Shown here piece by piece: positions 440 to 63,488 of a DNA stretch of 64,000 nt. Source of the stretch: Verrucomicrobiales bacterium (GTDB taxonomy: Bacteria > Verrucomicrobiota > Verrucomicrobiia > Limisphaerales > JACDHS01); contig JAQGOU010000115.1 in NCBI GenBank assembly GCA_028293445.1, forward strand, positions 4,129 to 68,128, in the 5' to 3' direction. The notes beneath the pieces are model-generated. The model saw only the letters and a program-made list of their open reading frames with translations. It did not search any database and was not told the DNA's origin. A program made the position numbers and the translations under genes. Position 1 is the first letter of the stretch; every line of letters starts with the position of its first letter.

Positions 440-580
440 GCGCCTGGATGCGGAACGAGGCGCGCGGCGTTTACCCCGCTTCATTGTCCATTCTGCAGAA
501 CGTCTCGAAGAACGTCGGGGCCTTCGTACTTCGTGCGTTGAAGCGGGCTAAAGCCCGCGCTCCAGGTGCGGCGTTTAGCC
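440..580. repeat. REPIN-like inverted doublet of a GC-rich palindromic element (family GGAGCGCGGCRTTTAYSCCGCTTCA)
   Basis: The left arm gcgcctggatgcggaacgaggcgcgcggcgtttaccccgcttca (440-483) and the right arm tgaagcgggctaaagcccgcgctccaggtgc (539-569) are imperfect reverse complements. A partial third copy gcggcgtttagcc follows. The same family recurs at 2082-2211. Confidence 0.6.
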
Positions 581-673
581 TTTATAGTATTCCCTGATAA
601 TCCACTTTACCGGTCGGCTATCGCGGCGCACATTCTCACGCACTCACTTAATTTACAGGAACCTGAAATCGTT

Positions 674-1153
674 ATGCACAAAGTGAACACGAACGACATG
701 GCCGAAGAGAAGTGGTCTTCGCCAAAGGAAAATTTTGTTGGCTCCAGTAAAAGCATTTCGGAAGCGTTGGGACGTCAACCGCTCTCGACGGACCTCATGC
801 AACGTCATCCGTTTGATGTCGAGATTCTCCGTATCCCTCCCAGCAAGAGCGCCTACCCTTATCATTCGCATAGTGCGCAGTGGGAATTTTATCACGTGAT
901 CTCCGGAACCGGCATTGCACGTCATCAGGATGGCACGACCCCGATCGTCGCTGGCGACGCGTTCGTCTTTAAACCAGGCGAACCGCACCAACTCATCAAC
1001 GACAGCACCACAGATCTGATCATCTATGTCGTCGCCGATAATCCGATCGGTGACTCGTGCCATTATCCCGACAGTAAGAAATGGTTGGTGCGCTCACCCG
1101 AGCGTCATCTGCTCCGTTCCGAACCGTTGGATTACTATGATGGTGAGGAATAA
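674..1153 (+). CDS. Cupin-2 domain protein
   Basis: ORF 566..1153. Cupin motifs YPYHSHSAQWEFYHVISGTG...AGDAFVFKPGEPHQLIN. I chose ATG 674 (MHKVNTNDMAEEKW, AGGA about 13 nt upstream) because the 566 GTG start lies inside the REP doublet. Confidence 0.8.
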   Translation: MHKVNTNDMAEEKWSSPKENFVGSSKSISEALGRQPLSTDLMQRHPFDVEILRIPPSKSAYPYHSHSAQWEFYHVISGTGIARHQDGTTPIVAGDAFVFKPGEPHQLINDSTTDLIIYVVADNPIGDSCHYPDSKKWLVRSPERHLLRSEPLDYYDGEE

Positions 1154-1449
1154 CTTCCACGTGAAACCCCTGTTTTGGGTGACCCAAAGTTGCCACTCTC
1201 ACGTGAAACTCCTGTTTCGGGTGACCCAAAGTTACATTCTCACGTGAAACTCCTGTTTTGGGTGACCCAAAGTTGCCACTCTCACGTGAAACTCCTGTTT
1301 CGGGCGACCCAAAGTTGCCACTTCCACGTGAAACTCCTGTTTCGGGCGGCCCAAAGTTGCCACTTCCACGTGAAACTCCTGTTTCGGGCGGCCCAAAGTT
1401 GCACTTTCACGTAAAACTTTTGTTTCGGGCCGTCCAAAGTTGCGGTTTC
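1151..1449. repeat. Tandem array 1: about 7 head-to-tail units of 41-42 bp (cacgtgaaactcctgtttcgggtgacccaaagttgccactct)
   Basis: CACGT anchors at 1158, 1200, 1241, 1283, 1325, 1367 and 1408 (hand count). There are no unique spacers, and the array starts 5 nt after the cupin stop codon. Confidence 0.9.
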
Positions 1450-1661: not shown

Positions 1662-2018
1662 ATGCAATCTAAAGCGAAGACAGTGAATGAGTATCTGGCC
1701 GAGTTGCCGCCCGAAAGACGCGCGGCACTTTCGACCTTGCGCGCGCTGATTCGGAAGACGGTGCCCGGCGTCATCGAAAGCATGCAATATGGGATGCCGG
1801 GCTATGTGATAGGCGAGGTGATGTTGGGGTTGGCCTCACAGAAGCATTACATGGCGTTTTACTGCTGCGACACGGTGGTGGATAACTATCGATCATTGCT
1901 CGGCAAGCTCAACTGCGGCAAGAGCTGCATTCGCTTTAAGAATTTGGAAGAACTGCCGCTGGATGTAATCGCGACGATCATTCGCGACATCGTGAAGCGA
2001 AAGGCATCCAAAAAGTAG
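1662..2018 (+). CDS. DUF1801 (YdhG-like) domain protein
   Basis: 118 aa. TVNEYLAELPPERRAALSTLRALIRKTVPG...MQYGMPGY...KSCIRFKNLEELPLD is the typical DUF1801 pattern. Confidence 0.75.
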   Translation: MQSKAKTVNEYLAELPPERRAALSTLRALIRKTVPGVIESMQYGMPGYVIGEVMLGLASQKHYMAFYCCDTVVDNYRSLLGKLNCGKSCIRFKNLEELPLDVIATIIRDIVKRKASKK

Positions 2019-7936: not shown

Positions 7937-8563
7937 TTATTTCTCAGGGACGGACTGCAGTTCATCCGCTGTCCATGAAGATTTGTGGGACTCCGTTTCG
8001 TCGCGAATCTTTTTCACGTCGGCAGGCTTGACCGCTGAAGCTTTGTTACCCCAATCCTTGTTACCACGGACAAAAGTAATGACGGCGGCGATGTCCTCAT
8101 CGGTATAGGTATCGCGCCAGGGCGGCATCGCTGCAGCCCCGTATTCAGCGTCTTTAACTTTGACTGGCCCCACCAAGCCGCTCAGGACAATCCGAATCAT
8201 GCGCTCGGGACTAGCAGCCAGAACCCATTCCGATCCTGCGAGAGGAGGATTTTGACCTACAACACCAGTTCCATTCGCTTGATGGCAGGGCAAACAAGCC
8301 ACGCTGTAAATCTGTTGTCCTTTTCGCGCCAATTTGCCGCCTTCGTCTACGGGCTGGATGGCAACAACCTGATCGTACGAATGATAGGGCGCATAGACTT
8401 TGTGGTTAAAGCCGCCGCCGTGTTGGTCAATAAACAGACCTGCTGCAAAAATCCCGGCCGCCAAAAGAAAAAAGAAAATCACCGGAGCCGGCGCATCATT
8501 CACCTGCGGCGGAGCATCATCCCCACGAACAGTTTGTTTGGAATGTTTCGCGTCGGAGTTCAT
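7937..8563 (-). CDS. Membrane-anchored monoheme cytochrome c (CcoP-like / class I)
   Basis: 208 aa. One TM (VIFFFLLAAGIFAAGLF), CLPCHQ heme site, PPLAGSEWV and AAMPPW motifs. It has a 4-nt start/stop overlap with the upstream ccoO-like gene. Confidence 0.85.
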   Translation of the reverse strand: MNSDAKHSKQTVRGDDAPPQVNDAPAPVIFFFLLAAGIFAAGLFIDQHGGGFNHKVYAPYHSYDQVVAIQPVDEGGKLARKGQQIYSVACLPCHQANGTGVVGQNPPLAGSEWVLAASPERMIRIVLSGLVGPVKVKDAEYGAAAMPPWRDTYTDEDIAAVITFVRGNKDWGNKASAVKPADVKKIRDETESHKSSWTADELQSVPEK

Positions 8564-9249
8564 TTCGCTGGAGAATTGGTATTCGCCGCGGCGTTGGTGG
8601 CTGGCGCGTTGGTGGTGGCTGAATCAGGCACAGCGTTGGTTTTCGGCGACTGAGGCAAGGGCGCTTCAAACAATGGGGCCTCGGCATGCAGGCTGAACAA
8701 ATAACTTACCAGCTGATAGGCAGCAGGTGTCGCAATGATCTCGGTATTCGCGTCCACCAGAACTCTGTCCGGAGAAGGTGGTTGTCCTTCTTTCATTGGG
8801 CGCTTGGTAAACAGGAACGGATACTTCGGCATCGGAGACTTTTCCGATCCCGGCAGGGCGCGAGGATTATAAAGATGTTTCAGTTGCCAGTTCATATCTG
8901 GCTGACGCAACCCGATATTCTTCAGATCAGGACCGATCCGTTGCGAACCAAGCATTACCGGATTTTCATAAAGATAATCCTGAGCAACACTGATGCGGAC
9001 ACCCAAACCTGCGGTAACGTCGTTCGGGCGCACGACCTGAGTGTGACAGGAAGCGCAACCGAGAGAGCGGTAAAGTTGTTCGCCCTGATTTGCCTGCCCC
9101 GCGTGAGCGGACGGATATCTTTGGCCGGTCGTTTCAATCTGCACAACCTCTTGAGATCCGATCTGAAGCTGTGGCGCAAAGATCATTCCCAACCACGAAC
9201 ACGCGAACGTAATAAAAACGCCAAGGAAAAGGAGGGGACCATAGTTCAT
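8560..9249 (-). CDS. ccoO: cbb3-type oxidase subunit II-like monoheme cytochrome c (CcoO/FixO family)
   Basis: 229 aa. N-terminal TM, GCASCHTQVVRP, GSQRIGPDLKNIG, HLYNPRALPGSEKSPMPKYPFL. This matches the CcoO signature GCxxCHSQxxRP...GPDL...HLYNPR...MPxY. Confidence 0.85.
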   Translation of the reverse strand: MNYGPLLFLGVFITFACSWLGMIFAPQLQIGSQEVVQIETTGQRYPSAHAGQANQGEQLYRSLGCASCHTQVVRPNDVTAGLGVRISVAQDYLYENPVMLGSQRIGPDLKNIGLRQPDMNWQLKHLYNPRALPGSEKSPMPKYPFLFTKRPMKEGQPPSPDRVLVDANTEIIATPAAYQLVSYLFSLHAEAPLFEAPLPQSPKTNAVPDSATTNAPATNAAANTNSPAK

Positions 9250-10658
9250 CGCTTACCTCCTTTGTCACTACATTGGCAGCATTTACGGCATGTGGCGCGC
9301 AGCATACAACCCAGGTTCATGAGCAAAGCCAGGTTTCCGATGGCAATCAAGAGAAGGCCGAGTGTGCTCGGGCGTAAAAACTTTAAGGCGACAAGAAAAC
9401 CACTACCGCCGGCGTTCATCGATTGACCTTGTTTCACGCCGCCCAGGCCAAGGGCTACCACTAAGATGATGAGTCCAATTGCCACGAGCCAATAATGCAT
9501 ATTCGCCAGCGCGGGACGGGGCCATTCCATCAAGGTCAAGCGCGGCGCGATGTAATAAATCGCACCGAAAAAGGCCATCGCGATAAATCCATATAGCCAG
9601 AGATTCGAAATGGCGCCCGTAAAGATTGTAAATTCTGTGACATCATTGACGAGAGGAAGCGAATTGCCAGCCGTCAAAAGTCCCGCGATTAACAAACTGA
9701 TCATGGCGAAAACCATGAACCGCAGGGTGATATTTCCTTTTACGGAATTATTGGCGAGCGTCAAACGCCAGTTCACAACAAGCGCCAAAATGGGAATCAG
9801 TAACAGAAGTCGTGCGGCGGCGCTCACGGCCGGCAGCCAACTCGGTAACGGAACACCTGCTGGAATACCACACCAGCCACCGAAAAAGATAAAGGTCCAG
9901 AACGCAAACAACGCGAGATAGTAACTATGCAACGGTTGGCCAGAAATTTTCGGGATGAAATAGAAGACGGTGGCGATCGCAACGGAGGCCAGCCAGAGAA
10001 AGAGAAAGTTTCCGATGAACCAATAGTCCACGACGGACTGCATCACACCACGAACGGGGTGAATCAAAAGAAGCAGATTCGCCGTGGTCAATGTCCAGGG
10101 CAAAATGAAGAGCGCTGCCATCAAAAACCATTGGGAGACGTAGGTCGTCCGCTTAACGCGCGCGTGATAAGTCGCCACGGCAACAATGCCGATCAGGATG
10201 AAGGCGACAACAAAGAGCGGTGCCGCATAACGTGGAACTTCAAACCAGTCAAAGCCAGTGCTGTCACCGGCAAGAATTCCCACAATGCCAATCGCCAGGG
10301 CGAGGTTCCAGAAAACCGCACCGATGGTTGCCGCTGAGGCGTTGACCAATCGAACACGACCCAATTGACAGGTCAGCCAGAGCACAAGTCCAATGGCCAC
10401 TTCAGAAGCAAAGCCGTAGAGAAAGATGTCTGTTTGCGCCGCTTGAAGCCGGCCATAGGTCAGCAAGGGACATTCGGCCAACATCGCAGGCGCGTGCAGC
10501 TTAATGGAGGCGACCAAGGCCACGAGCGAGCCGAGGATCAGCCAAAGAGTCGCAGAGAAAAACAAGAACAGCACAGGACCGCGACACGAAGCGTCGATAT
10601 CAGCGCTGGAATATTTTACGGCGCTGGCGTCGGTTGGATTTGCGGACACTGACGTCAT
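9246..10658 (-). CDS. CcoN-like (heme-copper oxidase subunit I, C-family fold) protein lacking the canonical His ligands
   Basis: 470 aa polytopic membrane protein with CcoN-type motifs (YGRLQ, KRTTYVSQWF, FYFIPK, LRFMV, MHYWLVAIG). The six ligand histidines appear substituted (see finding). Confidence 0.8.
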   Translation of the reverse strand: MTSVSANPTDASAVKYSSADIDASCRGPVLFLFFSATLWLILGSLVALVASIKLHAPAMLAECPLLTYGRLQAAQTDIFLYGFASEVAIGLVLWLTCQLGRVRLVNASAATIGAVFWNLALAIGIVGILAGDSTGFDWFEVPRYAAPLFVVAFILIGIVAVATYHARVKRTTYVSQWFLMAALFILPWTLTTANLLLLIHPVRGVMQSVVDYWFIGNFLFLWLASVAIATVFYFIPKISGQPLHSYYLALFAFWTFIFFGGWCGIPAGVPLPSWLPAVSAAARLLLLIPILALVVNWRLTLANNSVKGNITLRFMVFAMISLLIAGLLTAGNSLPLVNDVTEFTIFTGAISNLWLYGFIAMAFFGAIYYIAPRLTLMEWPRPALANMHYWLVAIGLIILVVALGLGGVKQGQSMNAGGSGFLVALKFLRPSTLGLLLIAIGNLALLMNLGCMLRATCRKCCQCSDKGGKR

Positions 10659-23198: not shown

Positions 23199-23245
23199 CT
23201 CGCTTGTCTATCGTCTATTGATTATCGGCTATGCGCCAACGGCGC

Positions 23246-24160
23246 TTAGTGAGTCACAATCGTGATCTTCTCCGACAACGGACTTTCGCCACCGTTGTTC
23301 AACGCTGAGACATAAATCTCAATCGTCGAGCCAACAGGCAGATTCTCGAGTGTGAAATCGATATCCGCTGGCGAACCGACCGCAATCGGCTCCGCATCCA
23401 CGCCGATGACCCTCTTCCAAATGCGGTAATACTCCGCACGTGGAGTCAGACTCCATTTAATCGCCGCCGCAGTGGGACCGATCAACGTGGCAATCACGTT
23501 CTCCGGCGCATCCGGCGTTTCGTCGGCACCCGGCATATTGAAGCCGAAGTCCAACCAACGTTCATCGAGCGGATCCATCAACTGCTCGAGTTCATTGGCC
23601 AGGCCGCGAAGGCGCGTGCGCAATTTGCGAATCGCGCCGTCACGCGCTTTGATCAAACGCTTCACTTCCGTTTCCTGGTTGATCACCGCATTGTTCGCCG
23701 CGTTCAGGCCGTCGATAACGGATTGAACGTGCACCGGAGTGATGTTCAGGTCCGCATTTTGGATCTCGGGATGACCGTCAACGAACTCTTTCATCGCGAT
23801 CAACACGGGACCAAGGCCCGCGGCGTTGCGTGGCATGAGTATGGAGCCTTCAAGACCGAGCGCTTGGTAAGCGTTGGTATAGATGGGACCGAAGCGTGGC
23901 TTCACGAGGTCACGAATGACCGTGCCGTAAACACGCGCCTCTTCGAACGTCGTGTCCAGCGTCTCGCGACGGGTGGACAGCTCCAGCTTGGCATCCTCAT
24001 GCGCCTTACGTGTGCCGACCAGCATGATACGGTCGGTGAGCAACGCAGCTTCAGTGTTTTGTTTAATGGTGAGCACAGCGGCATGCAAATGCACACCGTT
24101 GAGAGATATCGCAGACAGCGATAGCAATTCACCTGGGTTATATGTTATGTCTTGTTTCAT
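23246..24160 (-). CDS. Hypothetical protein: helical/coiled-coil N-domain + C-terminal fibronectin type III domain, no signal peptide
   Basis: ORF 23246..24256. I prefer ATG 24160 (MKQDITYNPGE). The C-terminal about 90 aa, PDAPENVIATLIGPTAAAIKWSLTPRAEYYRIWKRV...IEIYVSALNNGGESPLS, is a clear FN3 pattern. Confidence 0.7.
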   Translation of the reverse strand: MKQDITYNPGELLSLSAISLNGVHLHAAVLTIKQNTEAALLTDRIMLVGTRKAHEDAKLELSTRRETLDTTFEEARVYGTVIRDLVKPRFGPIYTNAYQALGLEGSILMPRNAAGLGPVLIAMKEFVDGHPEIQNADLNITPVHVQSVIDGLNAANNAVINQETEVKRLIKARDGAIRKLRTRLRGLANELEQLMDPLDERWLDFGFNMPGADETPDAPENVIATLIGPTAAAIKWSLTPRAEYYRIWKRVIGVDAEPIAVGSPADIDFTLENLPVGSTIEIYVSALNNGGESPLSEKITIVTH

Positions 24161-24504
24161 AGTTATTTTCTTTCTGCCCGATCGACGCGGTTCAGCCTTG
24201 GGGTTGCCAGACTTCTCCAGGTTATAGTATGGAGAATCGGTCTTTTTGACGTGCAACAGACAACATGTCTGTTCAACACGGGCAATAATCCCAGCGACGA
24301 ATCCGAATCCATCGAACTAAAAAAAATCATAGCAGGGGGGGTAGGTAGCGGTCTGACCCACCCCTCATTTTGTCAGAAATATTTTTTACCGGCGGTTGTT
24401 GCTGCAAATCAGGCACTTACGACCTGAAACGGCGGAAAAGTGAGATTTTTTTGAAGCTGTCCGGGATTTTTCGGGGTGAATTCCGGCGATGGTGAGACTT
24501 TTTT

Positions 24505-24832
24505 ACGGTTCCTGCGACGGCTTTCAAAAATAATAAACCTCCGCTGCAGCTCCTGCGACGATCTTCCAAAATAATTAAAGTCCATTGCAGCTCCTGCGGC
24601 GTCCTTCCAAAATAATTACGGTTCATTGCAGCTCCTGCGGCGACCTTCAAAAATATTTAAAGTCCGTTGCAGTTCCTGCGATGCCCTTCCAAAATAATTA
24701 AAGTCCGTTGCAGCTCCTGCGGTGCCTTTCTAAAATAATAAATGTCCACTGCAACTCCTGCAGCGTCCTTCAAAAATAATAAATGTTCGTTTCCGTTCCT
24801 GCGGAGACTTGCAAAATATATTATAAAACCCA
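24505..24832. repeat. Tandem array 2: 8 units of exactly 41 bp (gcagctcctgcggcgtccttccaaaataattaaagtccatt)
   Basis: CCTGC anchors at 24511, 24552, 24593, 24634, 24675, 24716, 24757 and 24798 (all 41 apart, hand count). All units share one orientation. The array lies in the divergent promoter region between 24160 and 24928. Confidence 0.9.
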
Positions 24833-24927
24833 TTTCGGCTGCACCGTGATACAATGGTTCCCAGCGGAGCAGAGAACTTTTCATCCTAAACTTTAATTAA
24901 GACTGGGTGGCAAATGATTATCGGATT

Positions 24928-26457
24928 ATGAAGCAAAGAATTGCTCTAGCAATCGCACTCGCAGTGAGCGCGTTTGCTTTCCTTCAGGGAAAGCCCGCCG
25001 AGACAAATTCGGCTGAAATTGATTTGTCGGCACACATCAAGTTGAGACCGATCGTCCCAATTCGCCTCCCTGCACGGGCCACTGATGAAAAGCGCGTTAC
25101 TACGATCCGACAACTAATCCGAAATCTTGCTAAAATCGAAAAACCGGATTTTGGGCTCTCCAGCACAATGTCTGGTTCTGCATTTGCTCCCATTGCAAGC
25201 ATCAGGCAAGCGGGGGCAATGCTTTTGACCGAACATGGTCTCCAGACCTCCAATGATTCCACTGAATTAGTGAGACTCGGCCCCGAAGCGTTACCTTATC
25301 TCCTCGAAAGTTTGGAGGACAAGACGGCCACAAAACTCGTCATTCAGCACGAGCAACATTTTGGCGCAATGTGGTTCGCGAATGAACTTTGCGGAAATCC
25401 AGCGAACGCGCTGGAGCAACGCGTCATCGGAACGAACGAGCCGCCGCCGTTCGGTTCTGGCAGCACCATTTCCTCTTACACGGTTAAAGTTGGAGACATA
25501 TGCTTCGTAATCATCGGAGAAATCGTCGGACGAGAATATGAAGCCGTTCGATATCAACCGACATCCTGTGTAATCATCAACAGCCCGACCCATGATCCAA
25601 AGCTGGCGGGCCAAGTACGAGCTATTTGGTCCAATCGAGATTCTCGTCAGCATCTTCTGGATTCATTGCTTTTGGATTACAGCTCAGAAGGCGGTTTCAA
25701 TGGGAAATCGTTGGACGGTTGGGATGTCGGAAGCAGTCTTCAATGTTCGGCTGCGACACGGCTTCTCTTTTATTTCCCGGAGTTTACGACAAAACTAGTT
25801 GCCGATCGGTTGAGCAAATTGGATGTACACCTTTGTGACGATCAGAAGACACCGGATGAGTCGATGATGCGAGAAGTAAAGAATGGGGTTCGCACGGAGA
25901 ATTTTTTAAAAGCGGTAGCCTGGTGCGAGGAACCCGTCATTCGATTGCAGCTAAAGAATATTTTTCAACGGACCCTCGATCCTGAGCTGTTGCCGATTTT
26001 ATCTGATAAAATTACGGGTGCCGAAGTACGCCAACATTTAGAGGAAGCTATTTCACGATTGCCGGAAATCGAACTTGGTCCCTTTGGAGATGGTTATAAT
26101 CTTTTGGTCGCTTTCGGGGAAAAATGCGGCACCCAGGCAAGGCCAGCTTTCGAGCGATACATGACGAATGCAAGCCTCCAACGCTGTAGGAGTATGAGCC
26201 AAGTTCTGCGCAAAACGCAGGGAGAATGGTCCATTGATTTGTTAAAGCGGCTTTTGAACGACAAGCGTCCGGCAGATGGATGGACCTATGCAGTAATTCC
26301 ACATCAAAACGAACCGCGCCTTCCTATTCGTATTTGCGATGAAGCAGCCGAAACAATTTCCATGAATTTTCCAAAACTGACTTTCAAAATGGAAGGCTCA
26401 CACGAGCAGTTGGATCAACAGATCGAGAAAATGCGCCGACAAATCGAGTCAAAATGA
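24928..26457 (+). CDS. Secreted hypothetical protein with HEAT/armadillo-like helical repeats
   Basis: ORF 24907..26457. ATG 24928 gives the signal peptide MKQRIALAIALAVSAFAFLQG. LGPEALPYLLESLED-type helical repeat. Confidence 0.7.
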   Translation: MKQRIALAIALAVSAFAFLQGKPAETNSAEIDLSAHIKLRPIVPIRLPARATDEKRVTTIRQLIRNLAKIEKPDFGLSSTMSGSAFAPIASIRQAGAMLLTEHGLQTSNDSTELVRLGPEALPYLLESLEDKTATKLVIQHEQHFGAMWFANELCGNPANALEQRVIGTNEPPPFGSGSTISSYTVKVGDICFVIIGEIVGREYEAVRYQPTSCVIINSPTHDPKLAGQVRAIWSNRDSRQHLLDSLLLDYSSEGGFNGKSLDGWDVGSSLQCSAATRLLFYFPEFTTKLVADRLSKLDVHLCDDQKTPDESMMREVKNGVRTENFLKAVAWCEEPVIRLQLKNIFQRTLDPELLPILSDKITGAEVRQHLEEAISRLPEIELGPFGDGYNLLVAFGEKCGTQARPAFERYMTNASLQRCRSMSQVLRKTQGEWSIDLLKRLLNDKRPADGWTYAVIPHQNEPRLPIRICDEAAETISMNFPKLTFKMEGSHEQLDQQIEKMRRQIESK

Positions 26458-26597
26458 TTGGAGGTAATCAAGATTGGTTCCCTTCGCTATTCGCGAAGTT
26501 GTTTCTTGATCCCAATTTTATGATTATCCGCGTCTGCGGCAAATTTCAGTGGCAATATCCACGCGTGACGGATTCGCAACTTCTTCAAATTGATTCT

Positions 26598-27548
26598 GGT
26601 AAGGATGACTTCCACGTCGTCCCTAACTAAACCTTGAGGTATTCGACAATCCAAACGTGGACAAAGGAAAGCCCACACGCGTTCGGCTTACCATTGCTCG
26701 CCTTTTCTTCCTGTCCACCACAAGAAGATGTTAGGGACGACGTGGAGTCAGAACTATAAGTGGAATGGAACCCTGTCGGGATTCCGAGTCATCCTTACCA
26801 TGCGCGCCGTCGGTTCTTCATTTCCAGCGGAGGTCGTGAACGGTTCCTGAAAATGGCCATTCTTCAGGAGTTTTCACGAGACCTTTGCGAATTGGATTTT
26901 CACTCACATACCGCCACTTCGTCGCAAACTCTTGTTCATCGCGAATCCGATGATGAAAGCCGCCTCGCTGGAATCTCCACTCCACACCAACATGCTGCCG
27001 ACTGAATTCGCTTTTCCAAAATTCTGTCCACTGCTCGATCGTAAACTTCAGATCCCGCGGAGCGCAGAAGAGGTGGAGATGATCGGGCATCAAAAGATAA
27101 TAGCCGACAATCCACGCGTCCGCTTTGCGCCAGACTTGCTCGAGAGTTTTCTGCACGGCGTCTTGCGTCATCCACGGAATGCGATCTTTCGCATTAACGG
27201 TGAGGAAAACAATCGTGGGCCCGTCCAAAGAAATCTTCACACCTTCCGCGGGCGTCTTACGTCCAACCATCGGGTCCAGCGGAGCCTTTTCTTCCATGAG
27301 AAGAGAGTTAGAAATTTTCTAGAGTGCGTCGATGCCAAAACAACTTGGTAAGGATGACTCGGAATCCCGACAGGGTTCCATTCCACTTATAGTTCTGACT
27401 CCACGTCGTCCCTAACTAAACCTTGGGGCGTTCGCGAACCCGAAAGCGGACGAAGGGAAGTCCACACGCGCTTGGCTTACCATTGCTCACCTTTTCTTCT
27501 CGTCCACCACCGGGAGATGTTAGGGACGACGTGGAAGTCATCCTTACC
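26598..27548. mobile_element. RAYT (REP-associated tyrosine transposase) unit with two 202-bp composite flanking repeats
   Basis: L = 26598-26799 and R = 27347-27548. Both begin ggtaaggatgact and end agtcatccttacc. Each contains the stem ccacgtcgtccctaac / gttagggacgacgtgg around a ~100-nt segment shared in direct orientation. A ~40-nt hairpin-containing segment (cggaatcccgacagggttccattccacttatagttctgact) sits on the RAYT-proximal side of each, in inverted orientation. Confidence 0.85.
26818..27297 (-). CDS. REP-associated tyrosine transposase (RAYT; IS200/IS605 Y1 HUH transposase family)
   Basis: 159 aa. HUH motif in LMPDHLHLF, and catalytic-Tyr region WRYVSENPIRKGLVKTPEEWPFSG (pattern Y-x3-NP-x-R/K-x-GL...W.xS). 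Confidence 0.85.
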   Translation of the reverse strand: MEEKAPLDPMVGRKTPAEGVKISLDGPTIVFLTVNAKDRIPWMTQDAVQKTLEQVWRKADAWIVGYYLLMPDHLHLFCAPRDLKFTIEQWTEFWKSEFSRQHVGVEWRFQRGGFHHRIRDEQEFATKWRYVSENPIRKGLVKTPEEWPFSGTVHDLRWK

Positions 27549-27581
27549 AACGTTGCGGGGTATCGAACGCCTTTACTAAAT

Positions 27582-28643
27582 TTAGGCCACGTTTCCTTCG
27601 TCGGGTGCTGCAGGCATCAGTCCGCGCTTGCGGGCCATCCGCAGAACCGCGCAGTCAATCTCCGCGTTCAACGCCGCCGGTTCAATAACCTCGAAGTGAT
27701 CTATATGGCCCATCAGAAAACATTTCACTTCTTCAAGGCTGTCTATTTGCATCGTCATCCGGGAAGTGCCGTCTTCGCGAATTTCAAATTTCTGCGTCGG
27801 ATGCCATTTGCGGTCGCAGACGATATCGGTGCTCCAGGTATCGAAATCGATGACGATGTTATGTTTCTCGGTTCCACCCATCGCACGGAACGCGCCACCG
27901 AGAACTTCATTCGGCGTCCAACCGGGCGGTTTCTCGAATGTGTCCTTAGTGATTTCCGGATTGGAAATCCGAGGCAGAACGTAAGTGTGAACTTTGCCGC
28001 GGCCGGGTGCGTCGGCGAGAACATACCAACGATAATCCACGAGGGCCCAACAATAGGGCATGAGGTAACGCTCATATTCCTCCCGCGAGTTGTGTCGGCG
28101 ATACATCGTTTTCACGACGCGTTGGTTTTCGATGGCGTATTGGATTGTTTCAAATTTTTTGAAGTCCACTTCGTTACCCGCCACCGGGCGCCAGGAAGCC
28201 ACCGTCTCAAAGTTGTCGAGAGAGAAGCGGGCGTTGGGGCTGACGAAGTCCACCACTTTATCCAGGAGCATCCGCAAGGGCGCGTAGAGTGGCGTGCCTT
28301 CGTATTGCTTGAGCAATTCGTCGAGCATGAACAAACCAAACATATCCTTGGACGTGAGCGTGATGACGGGAAATTTATCCATCTTTTCGGTGTAGTACCA
28401 GCCGTGCTCCTTGTCATTGTAATCCATTGGAAAATGCAAGTCGTTGCGCATGCATTCGATGTCCCGTTTGATCGTCTCCTCGGAGATTTCCAACTCCTCG
28501 GACAAAGTTCTCTTGTTTGGAAACACACCGGCCTGGAGACGATAATGGATATGAAAAATGCGAACGATAGCCGCGCGGTTCAGGCTGTAAGGAGTTTTTT
28601 CCGCGTCAAATTTTTCGAATTCCTTTTTTCCACTGTTTGTCAT
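27582..28643 (-). CDS. HTH-WYL-WCX family transcriptional regulator (paralog 1)
   Basis: ORF 27582..28691; preferred ATG 28643 (MTNSGKKEF). wHTH FPNKRTLSEELEISEETIKRDIECMRNDL. WYL-type beta region YLMPYCWALVDYRWYVLADAPGRGKVHTYVLPRISNPEI. A C-terminal extension domain follows. Confidence 0.8.
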   Translation of the reverse strand: MTNSGKKEFEKFDAEKTPYSLNRAAIVRIFHIHYRLQAGVFPNKRTLSEELEISEETIKRDIECMRNDLHFPMDYNDKEHGWYYTEKMDKFPVITLTSKDMFGLFMLDELLKQYEGTPLYAPLRMLLDKVVDFVSPNARFSLDNFETVASWRPVAGNEVDFKKFETIQYAIENQRVVKTMYRRHNSREEYERYLMPYCWALVDYRWYVLADAPGRGKVHTYVLPRISNPEITKDTFEKPPGWTPNEVLGGAFRAMGGTEKHNIVIDFDTWSTDIVCDRKWHPTQKFEIREDGTSRMTMQIDSLEEVKCFLMGHIDHFEVIEPAALNAEIDCAVLRMARKRGLMPAAPDEGNVA

Positions 28644-28902
28644 GCGTTGTGATTTGTTTTGTTTTAATTGCTGGCCCAGGTGAGTTCCCATTAAGGATCG
28701 TCCCGCCCCGGTTTCCGGGCGCGTTTATGCCGTAAACAGGAAAAATGGGGAAGAGAGAATTCTTACCGAGGAATCTGAAGGGCGCCACTCATCGCATGCT
28801 GGATGCAGGGATGTACTTTTTCTTCTTCGATCCATATTCCGCTTTACTGCTGCGCCGGCCTGTTACAAAGATTCTTCACGATTCTTTTTCAGAGTTAAAT
28901 CG

Positions 28903-36184: not shown

Positions 36185-36321
36185 GGCCTGAGGCTGATGT
36201 TAGATCGGACGAATCATAGTGTGCGACAACAATTGGACGCGCGAACGCGACAGAGGTTTCGCGGGTTCAGTCGATTTGCCGATTGACTCCGCGCATAGCT
36301 CTGAGAATTTAATCGCCCTCT

Positions 36322-37872
36322 ATGGCAAAGATTCAGCGCGCCCTGCTCTCCGTTTTCGACAAAACCGGTTTGGTTCCCTTTGCCCAGATTTTGAAGGACG
36401 CGGGCGTGGAAATTATTTCGACCGGCGGCACGGCGAAAGCGTTGCGGGATGCCGGCATCACCGCGACAGAATTGAGTGCTTACACGGAGTTTCCCGAGAT
36501 GCTCGATGGTCGCGTGAAAACGTTGCATCCGAAAGTTCACGGCGGATTGCTCTATATCCGCGGAAATGCCGAACACGAAAAGGCGGTTAAGAAACATAAG
36601 ATTGGCCCGATAGATCTCGTCGTCGTAAATCTTTATCCCTTTGAACAAACGATCGCCAAGCCGGGGGTCACGGTCCATGACGCGATCGAAAACATTGATA
36701 TTGGCGGTCCGTCCATGTTGCGTAGCGCAGCGAAAAACCATGACAGTGTCACGGTCGTGATCGATCCGGCAGATTACGCCGAGATTGCAGATGAAATTAA
36801 GGCAAACGGAAATACCACCGTTGAACAACGACGCAAACTCGCCGTGAAAGTTTTTGCGCGCACATCCGCCTACGACGGAATTATCGCCGCGCATTTCACC
36901 AAGGCATTCGAGCTCGAGACTTCGGAACTACCGCAAACATTGCGCGTCAGCGAAGGTCAGGCACAAGCGTTGCGTTACGGCGAAAACCCGCATCAGCGCG
37001 CAGCACTTTATGGAAATTTCAAAGAGTATTTTCAACAGCTACACGGCAAGGAACTTTCCTATAACAACATTCTCGATCTGACTGCGGCCGCAAATTTGAT
37101 TGGGGAGTTCGCCGGTGAAGCGCCAACATTGGCGATCCTTAAGCACACCAACCCGTGCGGTGTGGGCCAGGGAAAAACGTTGCGCGAGGCGTGGGAAAAA
37201 GCATTTGCGACGGACAAACAAGCGCCCTTCGGCGGTATCATCGCCGTAAATGAGAAACTGGATTTGCATTGCGCGGAAGCCATTGCTGAAATTTTCAGCG
37301 AAGTGATCGTGGCGCCAGATTTCGCGCCGGATGCACTGGCTTTGCTGCAGAAAAAGAAAAACCTTCGATTGCTCAAAATTCTGAAGAGCCCGGCCACCGC
37401 TCAGCCGTGGGATATTCGTAGCGTCGGCGCCGAATCTTTTCTTCTGCAAGAACGCGATTTGAAAACGGTGACGGCATCTGATTTGAAATTTGTTACGAAA
37501 CGTCAACCGACCGAGGCGGAACTAAAAGCGATGCTGTTTGGATGGCGGGTCGTGAAACACGTGAAGTCGAACGCAATCGTCTATGCCGCGAATGATTGCA
37601 CGCTGGGCGTGGGCGCAGGGCAAATGAGCCGGGTCGATTCTAGTCGGATTGCGGTTTGGAAAGCTGGCGAAGCAAAACTGTCTCTCAAAGGCAGTGTCGT
37701 CTGTAGCGATGCGTTTTTCCCTTTTGCAGATGGATTAATTGCCGCAGCCGAAGCAGGTGCGACCGCAGCGATTCAACCAGGCGGGTCCATGCGTGACGCA
37801 GAAGTCATCGCCGCAGCGGATGAACGTGGGATTGCGATGGCCTTTACGGGACTGCGCCATTTCCGCCACTAA
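36322..37872 (+). CDS. purH: Bifunctional AICAR formyltransferase / IMP cyclohydrolase
   Basis: 516 aa. [41 protein letters not shown]...[14 protein letters not shown] and the C-terminal GGSMRD...[12 protein letters not shown] are classic PurH motifs. Confidence 0.97.
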
Positions 37873-37891
37873 ACCGGAAACGGGTTTGAGC

Positions 37892-38287
37892 TCAGCTCTT
37901 GAGCAGCCAGTAAATCAGGCTCACCTGGCCGAGAGTCAGCAAGGCGAGAGCGATCCAGGTCAGATTCTCTCGAAGGTTCAGGCTACTTTGTCTCGTAGGG
38001 CTGAGAGTGAATAGGATTCTCCCCTGCCCCACTTCGATTACATCAGCATTCTTCAGAATTGCCTCGCGTACATTTTGCTGACCAGAAATGGCAAAAAACG
38101 TGGAGAGCTCCGCTTGCAGGAAAAAGTCACTCGAACTGCGTAATTCGATTTTGAAATGCCGGTCAAATACGCCTGAGTCATCTAGAACAAGATCATTCTC
38201 CTTCGAACGCCCCACCCGGAAAGGAAAATGGCGGACAACGATTTCGCTGCCCGCCTTTTTGCCTGAAAGAACTTTTAACTGAAGCAT
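37892..38287 (-). CDS. FHA domain protein with C-terminal TM anchor
   Basis: 131 aa. FPFRVGRSKENDLVLDDSGVFDRHFKI (FHA core) and the C-terminal hydrophobic helix LTWIALALLTLGQVSLIYWLL. Its start shares 1 nt with the upstream stop. Confidence 0.7.
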   Translation of the reverse strand: MLQLKVLSGKKAGSEIVVRHFPFRVGRSKENDLVLDDSGVFDRHFKIELRSSSDFFLQAELSTFFAISGQQNVREAILKNADVIEVGQGRILFTLSPTRQSSLNLRENLTWIALALLTLGQVSLIYWLLKS

Positions 38288-38895
38288 CAGAATCCTCGGG
38301 GGACCGTGATGGTGTCGCCAGGATAGACTGGCAGGTCAAGTTTTGGATCGTGAAGCGCTTTTTTGCAATTCACGATCTCGATCTTGCCGTTGGATCGAGT
38401 CAGGCGAACGTGCTTGCGATCCGCGAAGTCAGTGAAATCTTCCGCACTCTGAATAGCTTTCATTACGGTGATCCCGCCCAGATACGGCAAACGTCCCGAA
38501 TGTTTTACCTCTCCACCTACGTAATAAAATCGCTCCGTTCCAACGGAAACATTTAAATTTCTATAAAATCTAGGAACATATGCTTTCTGGATGTCCTGCT
38601 GCAGCTGACTGACGGATTTGCCTGCGGCTTTGATCGTGCCGATCAAAGGCAAGGAGATGTCTCCGGATTCATTGATCTGGTTTTCCTGCGGCAGCATTTG
38701 CTGCTCAATAGGCAATCCCGAGAAAGTAATCTTCACACGATCGCCGACCTGAAGGATGTCAGTGCTGGGTGCGGGTTCGATCGCGACGGTATTGGTCGAG
38801 GAAGTCGAATCATTCAAGATGGCACAACCAGTGAACGAGACCACGAAGGCCAGCAAGCAGAATCCAAAGATTGTCCCGAAAATAGAATTTTTCAT
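38287..38895 (-). CDS. Polysaccharide export protein (Wza/Poly_export + SLBB)
   Basis: 202 aa. Lipoprotein-like signal (...SFTGC), LQVGDRVKITFSG, and an SLBB-like GEVKHSGRLPY...PGDTITVP. Confidence 0.8.
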   Translation of the reverse strand: MKNSIFGTIFGFCLLAFVVSFTGCAILNDSTSSTNTVAIEPAPSTDILQVGDRVKITFSGLPIEQQMLPQENQINESGDISLPLIGTIKAAGKSVSQLQQDIQKAYVPRFYRNLNVSVGTERFYYVGGEVKHSGRLPYLGGITVMKAIQSAEDFTDFADRKHVRLTRSNGKIEIVNCKKALHDPKLDLPVYPGDTITVPRGF

Positions 38896-38913
38896 TTTCC
38901 GTTTACGGGATGA

Positions 38914-41067
38914 TTACGCTTTAGCGGCAGCGGGCGCAATTTTTTTCTCGCCCCGTTTTGGCTTATCATCTGAATCACTGTTGCGATTGGAATAATAATA
39001 GCCGCTGTAATAGTAATAATTGTCGCCCGATCCGACACTGATGTTATTCAGCACAATGCCGATCATGTTACCGCCAATTTTCTGAATGCTCTGCTTGGCG
39101 CGGAGCGTCATCGCCTGTGGGTAGCGACGATATTGTACGACCTGCAGCGTCATATCCACTTCGCTGGCAAGAATAGAGGCGTCACTCACGCCCATAATCG
39201 GCGGAGAGTCAAAGAACACGAAGTCATAGCGACTCTTGAGCTCGTGGATTAAATCCTTCATTTGCGCCGAACTCAAGATGCCCATGGAACTGCTCGGCAA
39301 CTTGCCGCTCGCCAGGAAATGTAGCGTCGGCAAGGTGGTTTCTTGAATGACTTCGTCTAGTGAATTTTGACGCAGCAAATAATTCGTCAATCCTTTGGCA
39401 TTCGAGAGGCGCAGAATCTTGTGTAGGGTCGGCCTCCGTAAATCGGAATCAACAATCAACACCCGATCACCATTTTGAGCAAAAACAGTGGCCAGATTCA
39501 TGATGGTCGTAGATTTACCTTCGCCTACACCACCGCTCACAATCGTAAGCGTGTTCCACTTTTCATCTTTGCGGGAGAACAGGATATTCGTGCGTAACAC
39601 ACGATAAGCTTCGGCATGTGGACTTTCCTGACCTTCGTCGAGCACGAGTCCAACATCTTGCGGAATAACTCCGAGCACAGGAGACTGCAAAGCGCGTTCC
39701 ACGTCATCAATGGTCTTCACGTTCGTATCCAGATACTCAATGAAAAACGCCAGTCCGACGCCGAGAATTAATCCGACGATAACGCCGAGGGCAATATTAA
39801 GGGGAACAATCGGGCGTGCAGGTTTCAGCGCAGCAACTGCTGGATCCACGACGCGAACTCCGCTGCTGACAGGAATTTCCGATTCGATGCGCTCTTCTTC
39901 CGTCTTCATTTTAAGAGCATCCCGAACGCGCAGCAGCGTATCAAGATCACGCTTGGCGTCATAATAAGGGCGATACTTCGCGCTCAATGAGATTTGTTCC
40001 TGCTTGGCCTTTTCAACTTCTACCTCGATCTCCGTCAACTTTGCCTTGAGGGAGGCAACGCGCGCTCCGAGACCTTGAATGATTCCAGTGACGGTGTCCT
40101 TAATGTCGTTTTCATCGCTTTCCTGGATCAGCTTGGCCTTTGCATATTCAGGATGTTCTTTTCCAAGATCGGGGCTGAGTGAGTTAAGTTTGCGATGGGA
40201 CTGGGCAAGATTTAATAACAGCTCGCTCAGACGTGGATCGGGATAGGCAGTGGCAAGTGCATTACCCAGTCCTTTGCGATCGATCTGCTTGATTTCGTTA
40301 AGGAGTGTTGAGTACTGGACGTACTCATCATTGGCTTCAATGCGGCGTTGTTCGATTTGACGCAGAGTGTCACCGGAAAAAGTCGGAGCAGACTGCGTGT
40401 TCGCGTAAGCGCCCTCGGAAAGATCTATGATATTATTCGTGCGCCGCATCTCACCAACGGCCTTTTGCGCGCTCTCGACCTCTTTGTTCTTTTTATCAAG
40501 GTTCTCTAAAAGCGTTTTAAGACCACGCGCCTTCGTTTCACTACGTTGCTCCGCGCGGATTTGGCGGTAAACCTCTACTATGTCGTTCGCGATTTCGGGT
40601 GCTTCTTTTTTGTCACGGCTATAAACCCAAATCTCAATGTTGCTCGTGTTTTTGGATTGCTTGGCCCGGACTTGGTTCTCAAGAATCTCGTACGTCTCCT
40701 CGTCGACAAGAGGCTTTTCTAATTTGTAGCGTTCAGTCCAGCGCCGATTCAAATCCAGATTATGGATGACGCGATACAAAACCGGCTTCGATGTGATCCG
40801 CTCAAATTCCGTTTGAACCCAGAATGGATCAATATAGGAGCTGACCTGATAATTTCGAAAGGGGCCTTCGACGTCAGTCGTGTCCTTCTCGACAGATATT
40901 TTAACCATGCTCGCATAAGATTTAGGCCAATAAATCGTCAACCCCACAGTCGTTGCGAGAACTAAAATGAAAACGGTGAAAATGATCGTCTTGCGAACTT
41001 TTACAATTCGCCAGTAATCCAGGAAATGAAGCTTCTCCGGTTGCGCGTCGTTGTTTGCTAAATCCAT
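38914..41067 (-). CDS. Polysaccharide co-polymerase / tyrosine autokinase (Wzc/GumC/EpsG-like BY-kinase)
   Basis: 717 aa. Wzz-type N-terminus with TM, long coiled coil, second TM, Walker A SGGVGEGKSTT, VDSDLRRP, and a C-terminal Tyr cluster YYYYSGYYYS. Confidence 0.9.
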   Translation of the reverse strand: MDLANNDAQPEKLHFLDYWRIVKVRKTIIFTVFILVLATTVGLTIYWPKSYASMVKISVEKDTTDVEGPFRNYQVSSYIDPFWVQTEFERITSKPVLYRVIHNLDLNRRWTERYKLEKPLVDEETYEILENQVRAKQSKNTSNIEIWVYSRDKKEAPEIANDIVEVYRQIRAEQRSETKARGLKTLLENLDKKNKEVESAQKAVGEMRRTNNIIDLSEGAYANTQSAPTFSGDTLRQIEQRRIEANDEYVQYSTLLNEIKQIDRKGLGNALATAYPDPRLSELLLNLAQSHRKLNSLSPDLGKEHPEYAKAKLIQESDENDIKDTVTGIIQGLGARVASLKAKLTEIEVEVEKAKQEQISLSAKYRPYYDAKRDLDTLLRVRDALKMKTEEERIESEIPVSSGVRVVDPAVAALKPARPIVPLNIALGVIVGLILGVGLAFFIEYLDTNVKTIDDVERALQSPVLGVIPQDVGLVLDEGQESPHAEAYRVLRTNILFSRKDEKWNTLTIVSGGVGEGKSTTIMNLATVFAQNGDRVLIVDSDLRRPTLHKILRLSNAKGLTNYLLRQNSLDEVIQETTLPTLHFLASGKLPSSSMGILSSAQMKDLIHELKSRYDFVFFDSPPIMGVSDASILASEVDMTLQVVQYRRYPQAMTLRAKQSIQKIGGNMIGIVLNNISVGSGDNYYYYSGYYYSNRNSDSDDKPKRGEKKIAPAAAKA

Positions 41068-41126
41068 ATCTCAAAAAGAAAAAGGCCGGGTAATCTCCAG
41101 CCTTTTCTGAGAAATGCAAATTGTTT

Positions 41127-42386: not shown

Positions 42387-42492
42387 ACAGTTAGTCGTCT
42401 TTCGTTTGGTCCCAAAAGACGGTCAAAACGTCCATCGGTTTTAGGGAGGGTCATAAATATTGTCAAACGTAAACCAAAAGATTCTAGTCTAT

Positions 42493-43290
42493 CTATGGTT
42501 TCGGTTCGATTGCCGGGTGGGTGTCCGTTGCCTTTTCTAATCCCAGAGCCCATTTTATCGCACCAAGCACATGTTTCTGGTAGTTTTCATCGTTCCAAAC
42601 CTCGTCACGATGACCAAGCTCCGTGTAAAACACTTTTCCTTTACCAAACTCACTGCACCATGCGATAGGAAACTCTCCCGCTTGCGCTTTGTTTCCGGGA
42701 TCCTTGTCCAATTTCAAAAGCAAATGGACTTTTTTAGGATCATAGGATTTGAACATGTAGATTTCGTCGGTAACGGGCCACGTCTTGGGAAGCGCTTTGC
42801 AAGCAGGGTGCGCCGGATCAAGATTGATGCATTCAACTTCCGTGATTGCTGGATGATGAGAAAACTCCGCGCCAATCATTTCAATGTAGGGCGGAAAGCT
42901 ATGAAGCGTGTCGGTTGCGGAATGCATTCCGATGAAGGCTTTTCCGGATTTCAACCAATTGATAAATCCTTCTTTGTCGGGCAGAGGCAAATCGCCGGTC
43001 GTATTTGCGAAAATCACACCATCATACTTCTTCAAGTTCTCCAGCGTCATCTTTTCAGTCACCTCTTTCGCCACGGTCGCCACGTCGGTGCCCTCACTCT
43101 GCCGAACGTAGTCCACGGTGAACGCGCCCGACTTCTTCGCCATCTCCCCCAAAACCTTTTCTGCTGTCGGAATTGAACCATGCCGGTATCCAGTCGTTAC
43201 CGTCACGACGAGAAGTTTTTTCGGAGCGGCGGTCGCGGAAACGACGAATGCCAAGGTCAGAACAACTGCAAATGTAATATTCTTTATCAT
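42493..43290 (-). CDS. ThuA-domain (trehalose-utilisation-like) secreted protein
   Basis: ORF 42493..43431; preferred ATG 43290 (MIKNITFAVVLTLAFVVSATA). KKLLVVTVTTGYRHGSIP and ...FIGMHSATDT are typical of ThuA. Confidence 0.75.
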   Translation of the reverse strand: MIKNITFAVVLTLAFVVSATAAPKKLLVVTVTTGYRHGSIPTAEKVLGEMAKKSGAFTVDYVRQSEGTDVATVAKEVTEKMTLENLKKYDGVIFANTTGDLPLPDKEGFINWLKSGKAFIGMHSATDTLHSFPPYIEMIGAEFSHHPAITEVECINLDPAHPACKALPKTWPVTDEIYMFKSYDPKKVHLLLKLDKDPGNKAQAGEFPIAWCSEFGKGKVFYTELGHRDEVWNDENYQKHVLGAIKWALGLEKATDTHPAIEPKP

Positions 43291-63469: not shown

Positions 63470-63488
63470 CGGAACTTTCCGGCGAGAG

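Follow-up and report, generated by a model that had tools for sequence, protein, structure and literature searches.

Why do four tandem repeat arrays that are unrelated in sequence and lie in different intergenic regions of one chromosome share the same unit length, the same number of units and the same overall size? The question is raised by a 64-kb stretch of DNA from an uncultured soil bacterium of the Verrucomicrobiales (GenBank: GCA_028293445.1, contig JAQGOU010000115.1, positions 4,129 to 68,128), which is called the window here and in whose numbering all positions are given. An earlier note on this DNA, made from the sequence alone, had described the four arrays and had read their likeness as a structural or protein-binding constraint. 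We analysed them together with arrays from related genomes, whose 104 loci are numbered L001 to L104. The arrays are a lineage-specific family of 'phased palindrome arrays', in which the conserved properties are geometric and the sequences are free to drift.

Four arrays with a common geometry

The window contains exactly four long tandem arrays, each with a period of 41/42 bp, 7-8 units and a length of 287-328 bp, and their sequences are mutually unrelated (Table 1). Tandem Repeats Finder called array 1 at 1158-1443 (period 42, 6.9 copies, 91% matches, 1% indels) and array 2 at 24510-24816 (period 41, 7.5 copies, 79% matches, 0% indels), the latter with a higher-order period of 123 bp. Arrays 3 and 4 were each called in two pieces with a period of 41, at 44050-44214 and 44229-44333 and at 63504-63593 and 63576-63776, respectively. 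A separate autocorrelation scan of the whole window at lags 10-199 pointed to the same four places only, with lags of 41/42 and their multiples, and no further long-period array was found in the 64 kb by either method. The likeness reported in the earlier note is thus confirmed in period, unit number, approximate size of 300 bp and unrelatedness of sequence. With a flat prior on periods of 10-100 bp, the chance that three more arrays fall into the same 2-bp period class is about (2/90)^3, that is about 1e-5.

Printing the units in register showed that they follow each other head-to-tail without unique spacers, as had been claimed. In array 1 the CACGT anchors that mark the unit starts lie exactly where they had been placed, at 1158, 1200, 1241, 1283, 1325, 1367 and 1408, with spacings of 42, 41, 42, 42, 42 and 41; the mean period is 41.75 bp, measured from lag 167 over four units. 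Arrays 2, 3 and 4 consist of 8, 7 and 7 units of exactly 41 bp, again spacer-free. Arrays 3 and 4 are each composed of two blocks with their cores in opposite orientation, and the 41-bp register is unbroken across the switch.

Besides the two-block build of arrays 3 and 4, two details of the first description needed correction. The lengths and bounds given by hand count were roughly right, but the recomputed ones are a few bases tighter (Table 1). The division of the unit into a GC-rich core of about 25 nt and an A/T-rich linker of about 16 nt applies to arrays 2-4 but not to array 1, which has no A/T-rich linker. All sequences in this study are metagenome assemblies, and high-identity arrays (91% in array 1, 98% in L101) may have mis-assembled copy numbers.

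Period and register

The period lies between 41.0 and 42.5 bp in 13 of 13 arrays, of which four are in the window, seven in close relatives and two in order-level relatives. Within this range it rises with the GC content of the array (Spearman's rho 0.78, p 0.0016, n = 13): arrays with 38-44% GC have a period of 41.0 bp, and those with 52-68% GC have periods of 41.75-42.5 bp. If a unit corresponds to four helical turns, the helical repeat would be 10.25-10.6 bp per turn. Since A/T-tract DNA has a shorter helical repeat, the trend runs in the expected direction, as expected if four helical turns are the conserved quantity.

Besides the period, the register is kept as well. In the six 41-bp arrays with a unit identity of 66-76%, the best lags are all exactly 41, 82, 123 and 164. 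The joint probability of this for six arrays in a neutral in-place simulation is 3e-2, 4e-4 and 5e-7 at indel:substitution ratios of 0.02, 0.05 and 0.1, respectively. The array of L001 still has lags of 42, 84, 125 and 168 despite a unit identity of about 45%. Several units contain slippage-prone runs of T6-7 and A7-8, and the register is nonetheless intact. The unit counts of the eight crisp, complete arrays are 7.0, 8.0, 7.0, 7.0, 7.9, 8.0, 7.6 and 8.3.

Two dyads per unit

Each unit of 41-42 bp contains two different dyad-symmetric elements of 12-18 bp. A scan for dyad centres placed the two best centres 20-20.5 bp apart, which is half the period, in seven of the 13 arrays (arrays 1 and 2 and those of L099, L100, L104, L001 and L098; binomial P ~2e-5). 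In array 1 the first dyad, at offset 2.5, has 73% Watson-Crick pairing within +/-8 bp compared to a background of 25%. The second dyad, at offset 23.0 and with 75% pairing, lies 20.5 bp from the first and 21.5 bp from the first dyad of the next unit. Another example is array 2, where one dyad is located at GCAGCTCCTGC and the other at the A/T linker, 20.5 bp apart.

The layout of the arrays approaches (X X')n, where the half-unit X measures about 20.5 bp, and it reads nearly alike on both strands. Six arrays have a self reverse-complement identity of 0.62-0.70 (0.68 in array 3 and 0.66 in array 4), whereas column-shuffled controls reach 0.43 +/- 0.03. The units of arrays 1 and 2 are plainly direct repeats, and in L097 two linker types alternate, so that the true period is 85 bp. 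Seven to eight units put about 15 dyads at intervals of two helical turns on one face of about 300 bp of duplex. This strand symmetry would allow cores to flip without loss of register, since an inversion between two dyad centres keeps the lattice.

Arrays in related genomes

By its PurH protein the window belongs to the Verrucomicrobiota and falls among Limisphaerales/Pedosphaera-like metagenome-assembled genomes (MAGs), the best species representative having 92% protein identity. As close relatives we used about 160 kb of contigs from the ENA assemblies ERZ27336822, ERZ27336827 and ERZ27336832, in which neighbouring proteins are 81-92% identical. Together, the window and these contigs contain 11 arrays in about 226 kb, or about one per 20 kb. 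The order-level sample consisted of 1.31 Mb around PurH from 80 species-level relatives. At default stringency Tandem Repeats Finder detected no 41-bp array in this sample, and a more sensitive scan of the same sequence found three degenerate intergenic arrays with a 42-bp period (L001, L048 and L076). With L001 counted among the close relatives (Table 1), the density in order-level relatives is two arrays in about 1.3 Mb, or about one per 650 kb.

One array could be followed between genomes. L001 is collinear with positions 36270-43551 of the window at about 73% DNA identity, its array sits at the position of array 3, and the two arrays have GCGGRAATTCC...ACCGTGA in common. Shared position and shared sequence indicate that both descend from one ancestral array. 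Comparison of orthologous intergenic regions thus shows that an array was kept at this site, with periods that now differ (41 bp in array 3, 42 bp in L001). The metagenome contigs scanned with the ThuA neighbour of array 3 gave only homologs of at most 58% identity and no orthologous locus.

At non-orthologous loci the consensus units are mostly unrelated. Array 4 forms a sub-family with L098 and L101 (z ~6). CACGTG cores are found in four of the 13 arrays: array 1 (1158-1167 and repeats), L097 (19135-19470), L099 (12241-12363) and L104 (12922-13085). Furthermore, CGATCG is common to L099 and L104, and TATCCCGCGGGATA to L001 and L100. The pattern resembles what might be left of an old dispersed family under array-wise concerted evolution. 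As a candidate for a motif common to all arrays we considered GGAAA/TTTCC, present in 7 of 12 arrays with a background of 0.18 per unit, and rejected it as not significant after correction for 512 k-mers. Outside the arrays the hexamer TCTAGA is very rare (three times in 63 kb); array 4 has at least six copies, and the hexamer is present in the L101 array too.

A probable constraint on duplex DNA

The pattern is best explained by a constraint that acts on the duplex DNA. The common period of 13 arrays, its relation to GC content, the preserved register, the half-period dyads and the persistence at an orthologous site all speak for a structural constraint, and this part of the argument from same geometry and unrelated sequence has been considerably strengthened. 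The other part, the binding of a protein, is what we infer from it.

By analogy, the arrays may be a DNA-level scaffold, protein-binding or topological, that is used from one face and works like the BIME-2 clusters of E. coli; we give this reading a probability of roughly 40%. BIME-2 clusters bind gyrase independently of transcription (PMC6379681), and IHF, Pol I and gyrase are all bound by REP/BIME elements (PMC3333891). The anatomy of the arrays suggests how they might arise. Local amplification would grow them in blocks of 2-3 units, and exchange and inversion at dyads would shuffle them, with the register kept whenever an inversion runs between two dyad centres. Concerted evolution would then make the sequence of each array private and leave the geometry constant. 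If the conserved quantity is helical phase and not sequence, the arrays are most likely DNA-level platforms at which shape or spacing is read rather than bases. The putative reader would be a dyad-symmetric architectural protein or a topoisomerase that acts cooperatively along one face. Arrays of this kind would mark the chromosome at distances of 19 kb or more, as BIME-2 clusters do as transcription-independent gyrase sites in E. coli.

The arrays of the window are spaced with unusual evenness. Their start-to-start gaps are 23.35, 19.54 and 19.44 kb, and four points placed at random in 64 kb would have gaps of at least 19.4 kb throughout with P = 6e-5. There are no pairs of arrays closer than 19 kb across all sampled segments (P ~5e-4, with a threshold chosen post hoc). 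A rule of minimum distance between arrays may hold.

A more far-reaching proposal, which we regard as doubtful, is that the arrays are an undescribed class of chromosomal architectural element. Such an element would be a strand-symmetric two-turn lattice of about 15 dyads, about 8 x 41 bp in size and at least 19 kb from the next one. It would provide putative loading, anchoring or boundary sites for a topoisomerase, SMC or nucleoid protein, which set supercoil or loop domains in Pedosphaera-like Verrucomicrobia. We found no description of such arrays in the literature searched. Current models divide bacterial chromosomes into supercoil or loop domains some 10-20 kb in size, and to our knowledge sequence-defined domain boundaries are almost unknown outside the enterobacterial REP/BIME literature. 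Conserved geometry combined with free sequence, in either orientation, is the signature expected of an architectural site that is read by shape or phase. Even if the arrays should be selfish DNA, a repeat family whose unit length tracks the twist of the duplex would be under an unusual constraint.

Several points weigh against a DNA-level scaffold. The palindromes differ between arrays, which excludes a single base-specific reader, and a reader of shape alone is hypothetical. At the sole orthologous pair, which is one at genus level, the copy number differs, with 7 units in the window and at least 12 in L001. The narrow range of 7-8 units could in part be an assembly ceiling, because arrays that short reads cannot resolve end contigs, and both the L001 and the L101 array are found at contig ends. 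Higher-order periods of 82/85 or 123/125 bp are present in many arrays, and those of 82 and 123 bp look like ordinary unequal-exchange dynamics. The spacing is not a strict lattice; one of 20 kb is ruled out by 30.9 kb of contiguous array-free sequence in a relative (L096 and L102). Intrinsic curvature was rejected as the unifying property, as a wedge model of the Bolshoy type finds no property shared by the arrays. In this model array 4 is the most curved 290-bp stretch of the window, array 2 is straighter than 95% of the window and nothing stands out in arrays 1 and 3. The idea that in-phase A/T tracts act through curvature is not borne out, strong curvature being predicted for array 4 only. 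Moreover, all statistics were computed post hoc, from small samples of arrays that are in part related to each other.

Other explanations

Some of these points would be natural if the arrays were selfish or neutral hairpin minisatellites. They would then be amplified by hairpin slippage, unequal exchange or HUH/Y1 enzymes without gain for the host, and the 41-42-bp step and the size of about 300 bp would be by-products of the mechanism or of assembly limits. The different copy numbers of array 3 and its L001 ortholog, the contigs of L001 and L101 that end within arrays and the higher-order periods of two or three units are all in line with this, and private sequences are the expected product of local amplification. 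Furthermore, hairpins abound in the units. Fold z-scores against shuffles are negative for every array (-2.5 to -11.5) and most so for arrays 3 and 4 (-7 to -11.5), and the predicted fold of array 3 contains a long hairpin. Two arrays have Y1/HUH genes in their neighbourhood: array 2 lies 2 kb from a RAYT-like gene, and the L097 array 1.6 kb from an IS200-like one. Local amplification of BIMEs driven by RAYT has been proposed (PMC3333891), and in the sister phylum Planctomycetota structural polymorphism is concentrated at intergenic tandem repeats (PMC9426551). However, slippage predicts a broad spread of periods, and all 13 fall within 1.5 bp. Neither a period that tracks GC content nor the exact half-period spacing of the dyads is predicted, and the same is true of a register kept at 45-70% unit identity, even through runs of T and A. 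Moreover, one orthologous site has kept its array although the DNA has diverged by about 27%. This is the main rival explanation, which on balance we consider rather unlikely.

The resident RAYT was a candidate for the amplifying enzyme. The gene, noticed earlier, is real, but its match is weak and below the curated cutoff: the HUH/Y1 open reading frame (ORF) at 26818-27297 on the minus strand matches the NCBIfam model REP_Tyr_transpos with an E-value of 8e-20 and 71 bits, compared to a cutoff of 80, and it has no Pfam match at E<=0.01. It is located inside a REPtron-like structure (26597-27549) of nested perfect inverted repeats, with arms of 71 bp (26730-26800 and 27346-27416) and 31 bp (26597-26627 and 27519-27549). 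The motif GTTAGGGACGACGTGGA is found four times in these inverted repeats, forming two REPIN-like doublets, and nowhere else, neither in the arrays, nor in the rest of the window, nor in any of the 104 loci. As the REP motif of the RAYT is confined to its own flanks, we ruled out that the arrays are BIMEs of the resident RAYT, and the suggested link between the two is unsupported.

GC-rich palindromes that do resemble REPs were seen in L033 (865-1304) and L097 (16716-17000), for example CCGGGGCGTTGCCCCGGGCTGGTATG..., with a period of 124 bp. They are unlike the 41-42-bp arrays, and those of L097 adjoin the IS200-like gene.

That the arrays act as RNA is, in our view, improbable. They would be multi-hairpin transcripts of 3' untranslated or intergenic regions, serving in two-way termination or stabilisation or as a sponge for an RNA-binding protein (for example of the CsrA type, with GGA loops). 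Array 1 starts 5 nt past the stop codon of the cupin gene and is probably co-transcribed with it, and the folding results above would suit an RNA as well. At the orientation switch of array 4, an A-run, a stem and a T-run resemble a bidirectional terminator. GGA is placed in the loops of small hairpins, which are shaped like CsrA/RsmA sites: GAAAC-AGGA-GUUUC on the minus strand of array 1 (1164-1177 and repeats), and U-run-GGAGC-A-run in array 4 (63493-63510 and repeats) and L098 (6640-6665). Against this stand the strand symmetry and the orientation flips of the arrays, the lack of an excess of G-U-compatible stem mismatches on either strand (42 on the plus and 45 on the minus strand, hence no RNA strand bias) and the fact that, of the eight arrays whose two flanks are both known, three (array 2, L097 and L099) separate divergent gene starts. 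Taken together, strand symmetry, absence of G-U bias and divergent-promoter contexts speak against an RNA function with a fixed orientation. Sites resembling promoters or terminators show no enrichment, bar weak A/T-driven matches in array 3, so we rejected tandem promoters and terminators too. Rfam gave no matches on the arrays at gathering thresholds, and at E<=1 only spurious matches to eukaryotic miRNA-hairpin models, at the orientation switches of arrays 3 and 4. Moreover, a period that tracks the helical repeat of the duplex would be left unexplained.

It is very improbable that each array is an operator or centromere of the sopC type, a high-avidity site of its own dimeric protein (ParB-like, WYL, Xre or others) for partition, titration or regulation, since arrays this frequent (about one in 20 kb), whose palindromes vary and come in two kinds per unit, would need hundreds of dedicated proteins. 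Beside the arrays there are no parA/parB genes and, in most cases, no regulator gene. Pfam annotation of the flanking and other large ORFs detected no ParB, and the sole ParA-like domain belongs to a Wzc-type kinase (38914-41067). No full parS was found in the window at <=2 mismatches, and at <=2-3 mismatches no array core was found elsewhere in the 64 kb, hence no single-copy, operator-like version of any core. In favour of operators, the palindromes of 12-18 bp are operator-sized, a 16-bp inverted repeat inside a period of 41-43 bp is how sopC is built, and CACGTG recurs in the four arrays listed above. The CACGTGAAAC of array 1 equals one half and the centre of the chromosomal parS consensus, and TTTTCCACGTGGAAAA of L099 agrees with the parS of B. 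subtilis in 13 of 16 positions.

The two WYL regulators named in the earlier note are real by Pfam annotation, and their link to the arrays is weakly hinted. All three WYL genes in the sampled 226 kb lie within 3 kb of an array (chance probability ~0.03), and the L097 array, with its period of 42.5 bp, is located 250 bp upstream of one of them. A Y1/HUH transposase-like gene directly downstream of a WYL-WCX gene is found in the window (26818-28691) and in L097 (17046-18889), in the same order and orientation. BLAST shows no relationship between the Y1 proteins of the two pairs (E 1.6), and the WYL proteins share only 31% identity.

Genomic context

The window is an ordinary piece of chromosome with sulfatases, ThuA, PSCyt/DUF1501 pairs, alternative complex III, a cbb3 oxidase, PurH and histidine kinases, and its largest intergenic gaps hold the four arrays. 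Arrays are found in co-directional, divergent and convergent intergenic regions, without a fixed direction with respect to the genes. Array 1 lies between co-directional genes (Table 1), array 2 between the divergent genes 23246-24256 (minus strand) and 24928-26457 (plus strand), array 3 between a plus-strand ORF that ends at 43987 and the 3' end of a kinase gene (44503-45771, minus strand), and array 4 between two minus-strand ORFs.

Table 1. Arrays, array elements and flanking genes of array 1 in the window, and arrays of related loci
Feature	Position	Strand	Length (bp)	Period (bp)	Units	Description
Array 1	1158-1449	no strand	292	42/41	7	head-to-tail; consensus CACGTGAAACTCCTGTTTCGGGCGACCCAAAGTTGCCACTCT; last unit degenerate
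Array 1 dyad 1, unit 1	1158-1163	no strand				CACGTG palindrome, centre 1160.5; in every unit (last unit CACGTA)
Array 1 dyad 2, unit 1	1174-1188	no strand				TTTGGG-TGA-CCCAAA, centre 1181
Array 2	24510-24837	no strand	328	41	8	consensus TCCTGCGGCGACCTTCAAAAATAATTAAAGTCCGTTGCAGC
Array 3	44050-44336	no strand	287	41	7	two blocks
Array 3 block a	44050-44213	no strand		41	4	GCGGGAATTCCAGACTGACGGCGGCGCC and AATAATATTATTG linker
Array 3 block b	44214-44336	no strand		41	3	reverse-complement core (..GGCTGGAATTCCCGCC and AATAATAATAAAT), register unchanged
Array 4	63489-63775	no strand	287	41	7	two blocks
Array 4 block a	63489-63570	no strand		41	2	T-run-GGAGC-A-run linker and core CCTCGGCTATCTAGATCC
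Array 4 block b	63571-63775	no strand		41	5	inverted core (GGATCTAGATAGCCGAGG), linker TTTTTGGAGCAAAAAAA still in phase
Cupin-domain gene	566-1153	+				left flank of array 1; Pfam Cupin_2, E 2e-14
DUF1801 gene	1662-2018	+				right flank of array 1; Pfam DUF1801, E 6e-20; 213 nt downstream of array
L001 array				42	at least 12	at contig end
L097 array				43 and 42, alternating	8	
L098 array				42	~10	
L099 array				41	8	
L100 array				41	7.6	
L101 array				41		incomplete, at contig end
L104 array				41	8.3	

The ORFs that cross arrays match no Pfam family and are most likely annotation artefacts made by the repeats, as the earlier note had held of the repeat-peptide ORFs. In the window these are 63557-63871 and 43789-44079, both on the minus strand. 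In relatives, called genes cross the arrays of L097 (18971-19576, 201 aa), L100 (8786-9277, 163 aa) and L098 (6698-6937, 79 aa). In practice, arrays of this type break short-read assemblies and spawn spurious 'hypothetical protein' calls in the public annotations of these MAGs.

Directly left of array 4, at 63372-63479, there is a long imperfect hairpin (GACGTGAGGAGGCTC...GAGCCTCGTCACCTCGTC) with a spurious match to a miRNA model (E 0.88). The gene upstream of array 3 is apparently disrupted: L001 has an ORF of 366 aa (8403-9503), with which the signal-peptide N-terminus of window 43370-43987 aligns, and in the window a stop interrupts the frame after about 105 codons, with a second ORF in the same frame behind it that runs up to 43987. 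The fn3 gene that borders array 2 adjoins PurH directly in L001 (L001 1-1102, window 23245-24282). The 12 kb of the window at 24.3-36.2 kb, with array 2, the RAYT-like gene, a WYL gene and sulfatases, are absent or elsewhere in L001, whose contig begins exactly at the would-be start of array 2 and ends within the ortholog of array 3.

Several other identities were ruled out. The arrays are not CRISPRs, because their units abut without spacers; a true CRISPR was found in an order-level relative (L008, 5633-6290), with ten copies of the 36-nt repeat CTCTCCGCACTAAAAAACGTGCGGCCTCGTTGAAGC and spacers of 37 nt. A phage or mobile origin was rejected, the cores of arrays 1 and 4 being absent from IMG/VR. 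Scans for tRNA and tmRNA genes gave nothing real.

Comparison with known repeat systems

Minisatellites or variable-number tandem repeats, such as the mycobacterial MIRUs, are likewise intergenic head-to-tail repeats of tens of bp with higher-order periods and degenerate edge units, and the arrays are indeed head-to-tail repeats of the 10-100-bp class in non-coding DNA. In contrast to minisatellite loci, which vary in unit length and copy number, the arrays share their period, their dyad lattice and, in the crisp arrays, their copy number. Unit length and copy number are not independent between loci, with 13 of 13 arrays at 41.0-42.5 bp and the eight crisp ones at 7.0-8.3 units.

Phased operator sets, for example tandem 18-bp ARG boxes with a centre spacing of 21 bp, are a classical layout for the cooperative binding of an oligomer of dimers. 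As in the arrays, palindromes lie two helical turns apart on one face of the DNA. These sets consist of 2-4 sites of one sequence type at a promoter, whereas the arrays have about 15 dyads of two alternating types and occur in any intergenic context.

The REPIN/RAYT system has palindromes in inverted pairs too, and the window contains a RAYT-like gene flanked by REPIN-like doublets. REPINs, however, are dispersed doublets of one family mobilised by a RAYT, whereas the arrays are tandem, private to their locus and free of the REP motif of the RAYT.

The sopC centromere of plasmid F consists of 12 units of 43 bp, each with a 16-bp inverted repeat bound by SopB. The earlier note had named sopC and BIME-2 as analogues. 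Both are good ones in geometry, but membership in either family fails. Like sopC, the arrays have head-to-tail units of about four helical turns with an operator-sized palindrome in each, no spacers and a total length of a few hundred bp; their units of 41-42.5 bp carry palindromes of 12-18 bp. In contrast, sopC is one locus per replicon beside sopAB, with a single sequence and a single reader of the ParB type, whereas the 64 kb of chromosome contain four arrays of unrelated sequence, without adjacent par genes and with two palindromes per unit.

BIME-2 clusters are known from Proteobacteria such as E. coli. They too are intergenic, with imperfect palindromes arranged in tandem and joined by short linkers, and they resemble the arrays in several ways. 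Dyads follow about every 20-22 bp and one palindrome about every 40-45 bp. The elements of BIME-2 alternate in orientation; in the arrays the strand symmetry and the two linker types of L097 would suit such an alternation, but the units of arrays 1 and 2 are direct repeats. Copies are alike within a locus and linkers differ between loci, and the size is similar, with up to about a dozen elements. Their role as a transcription-independent gyrase site is exerted at the DNA level (PMC3333891, PMC6379681). The arrays differ from them in having sequences of their own at each locus and no shared, dispersed REP consensus in the 226 kb sampled. Neither GTAG/CTAC nor CGTC/GACG stands at a conserved palindrome foot in the unit consensuses, so the GTAG/CGTC tag is missing, and the units differ from the REP on the flanks of the resident RAYT-like gene. 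The arrays are also found between divergent promoters, their period is fixed within 1.5 bp and tracks GC content, and each unit has two types of dyad. Since membership in each named family (REP/BIME, sopC, CRISPR or plain variable-number tandem repeat) fails on at least one tested defining feature, we place the arrays outside these families, among the palindromic intergenic repeat clusters.

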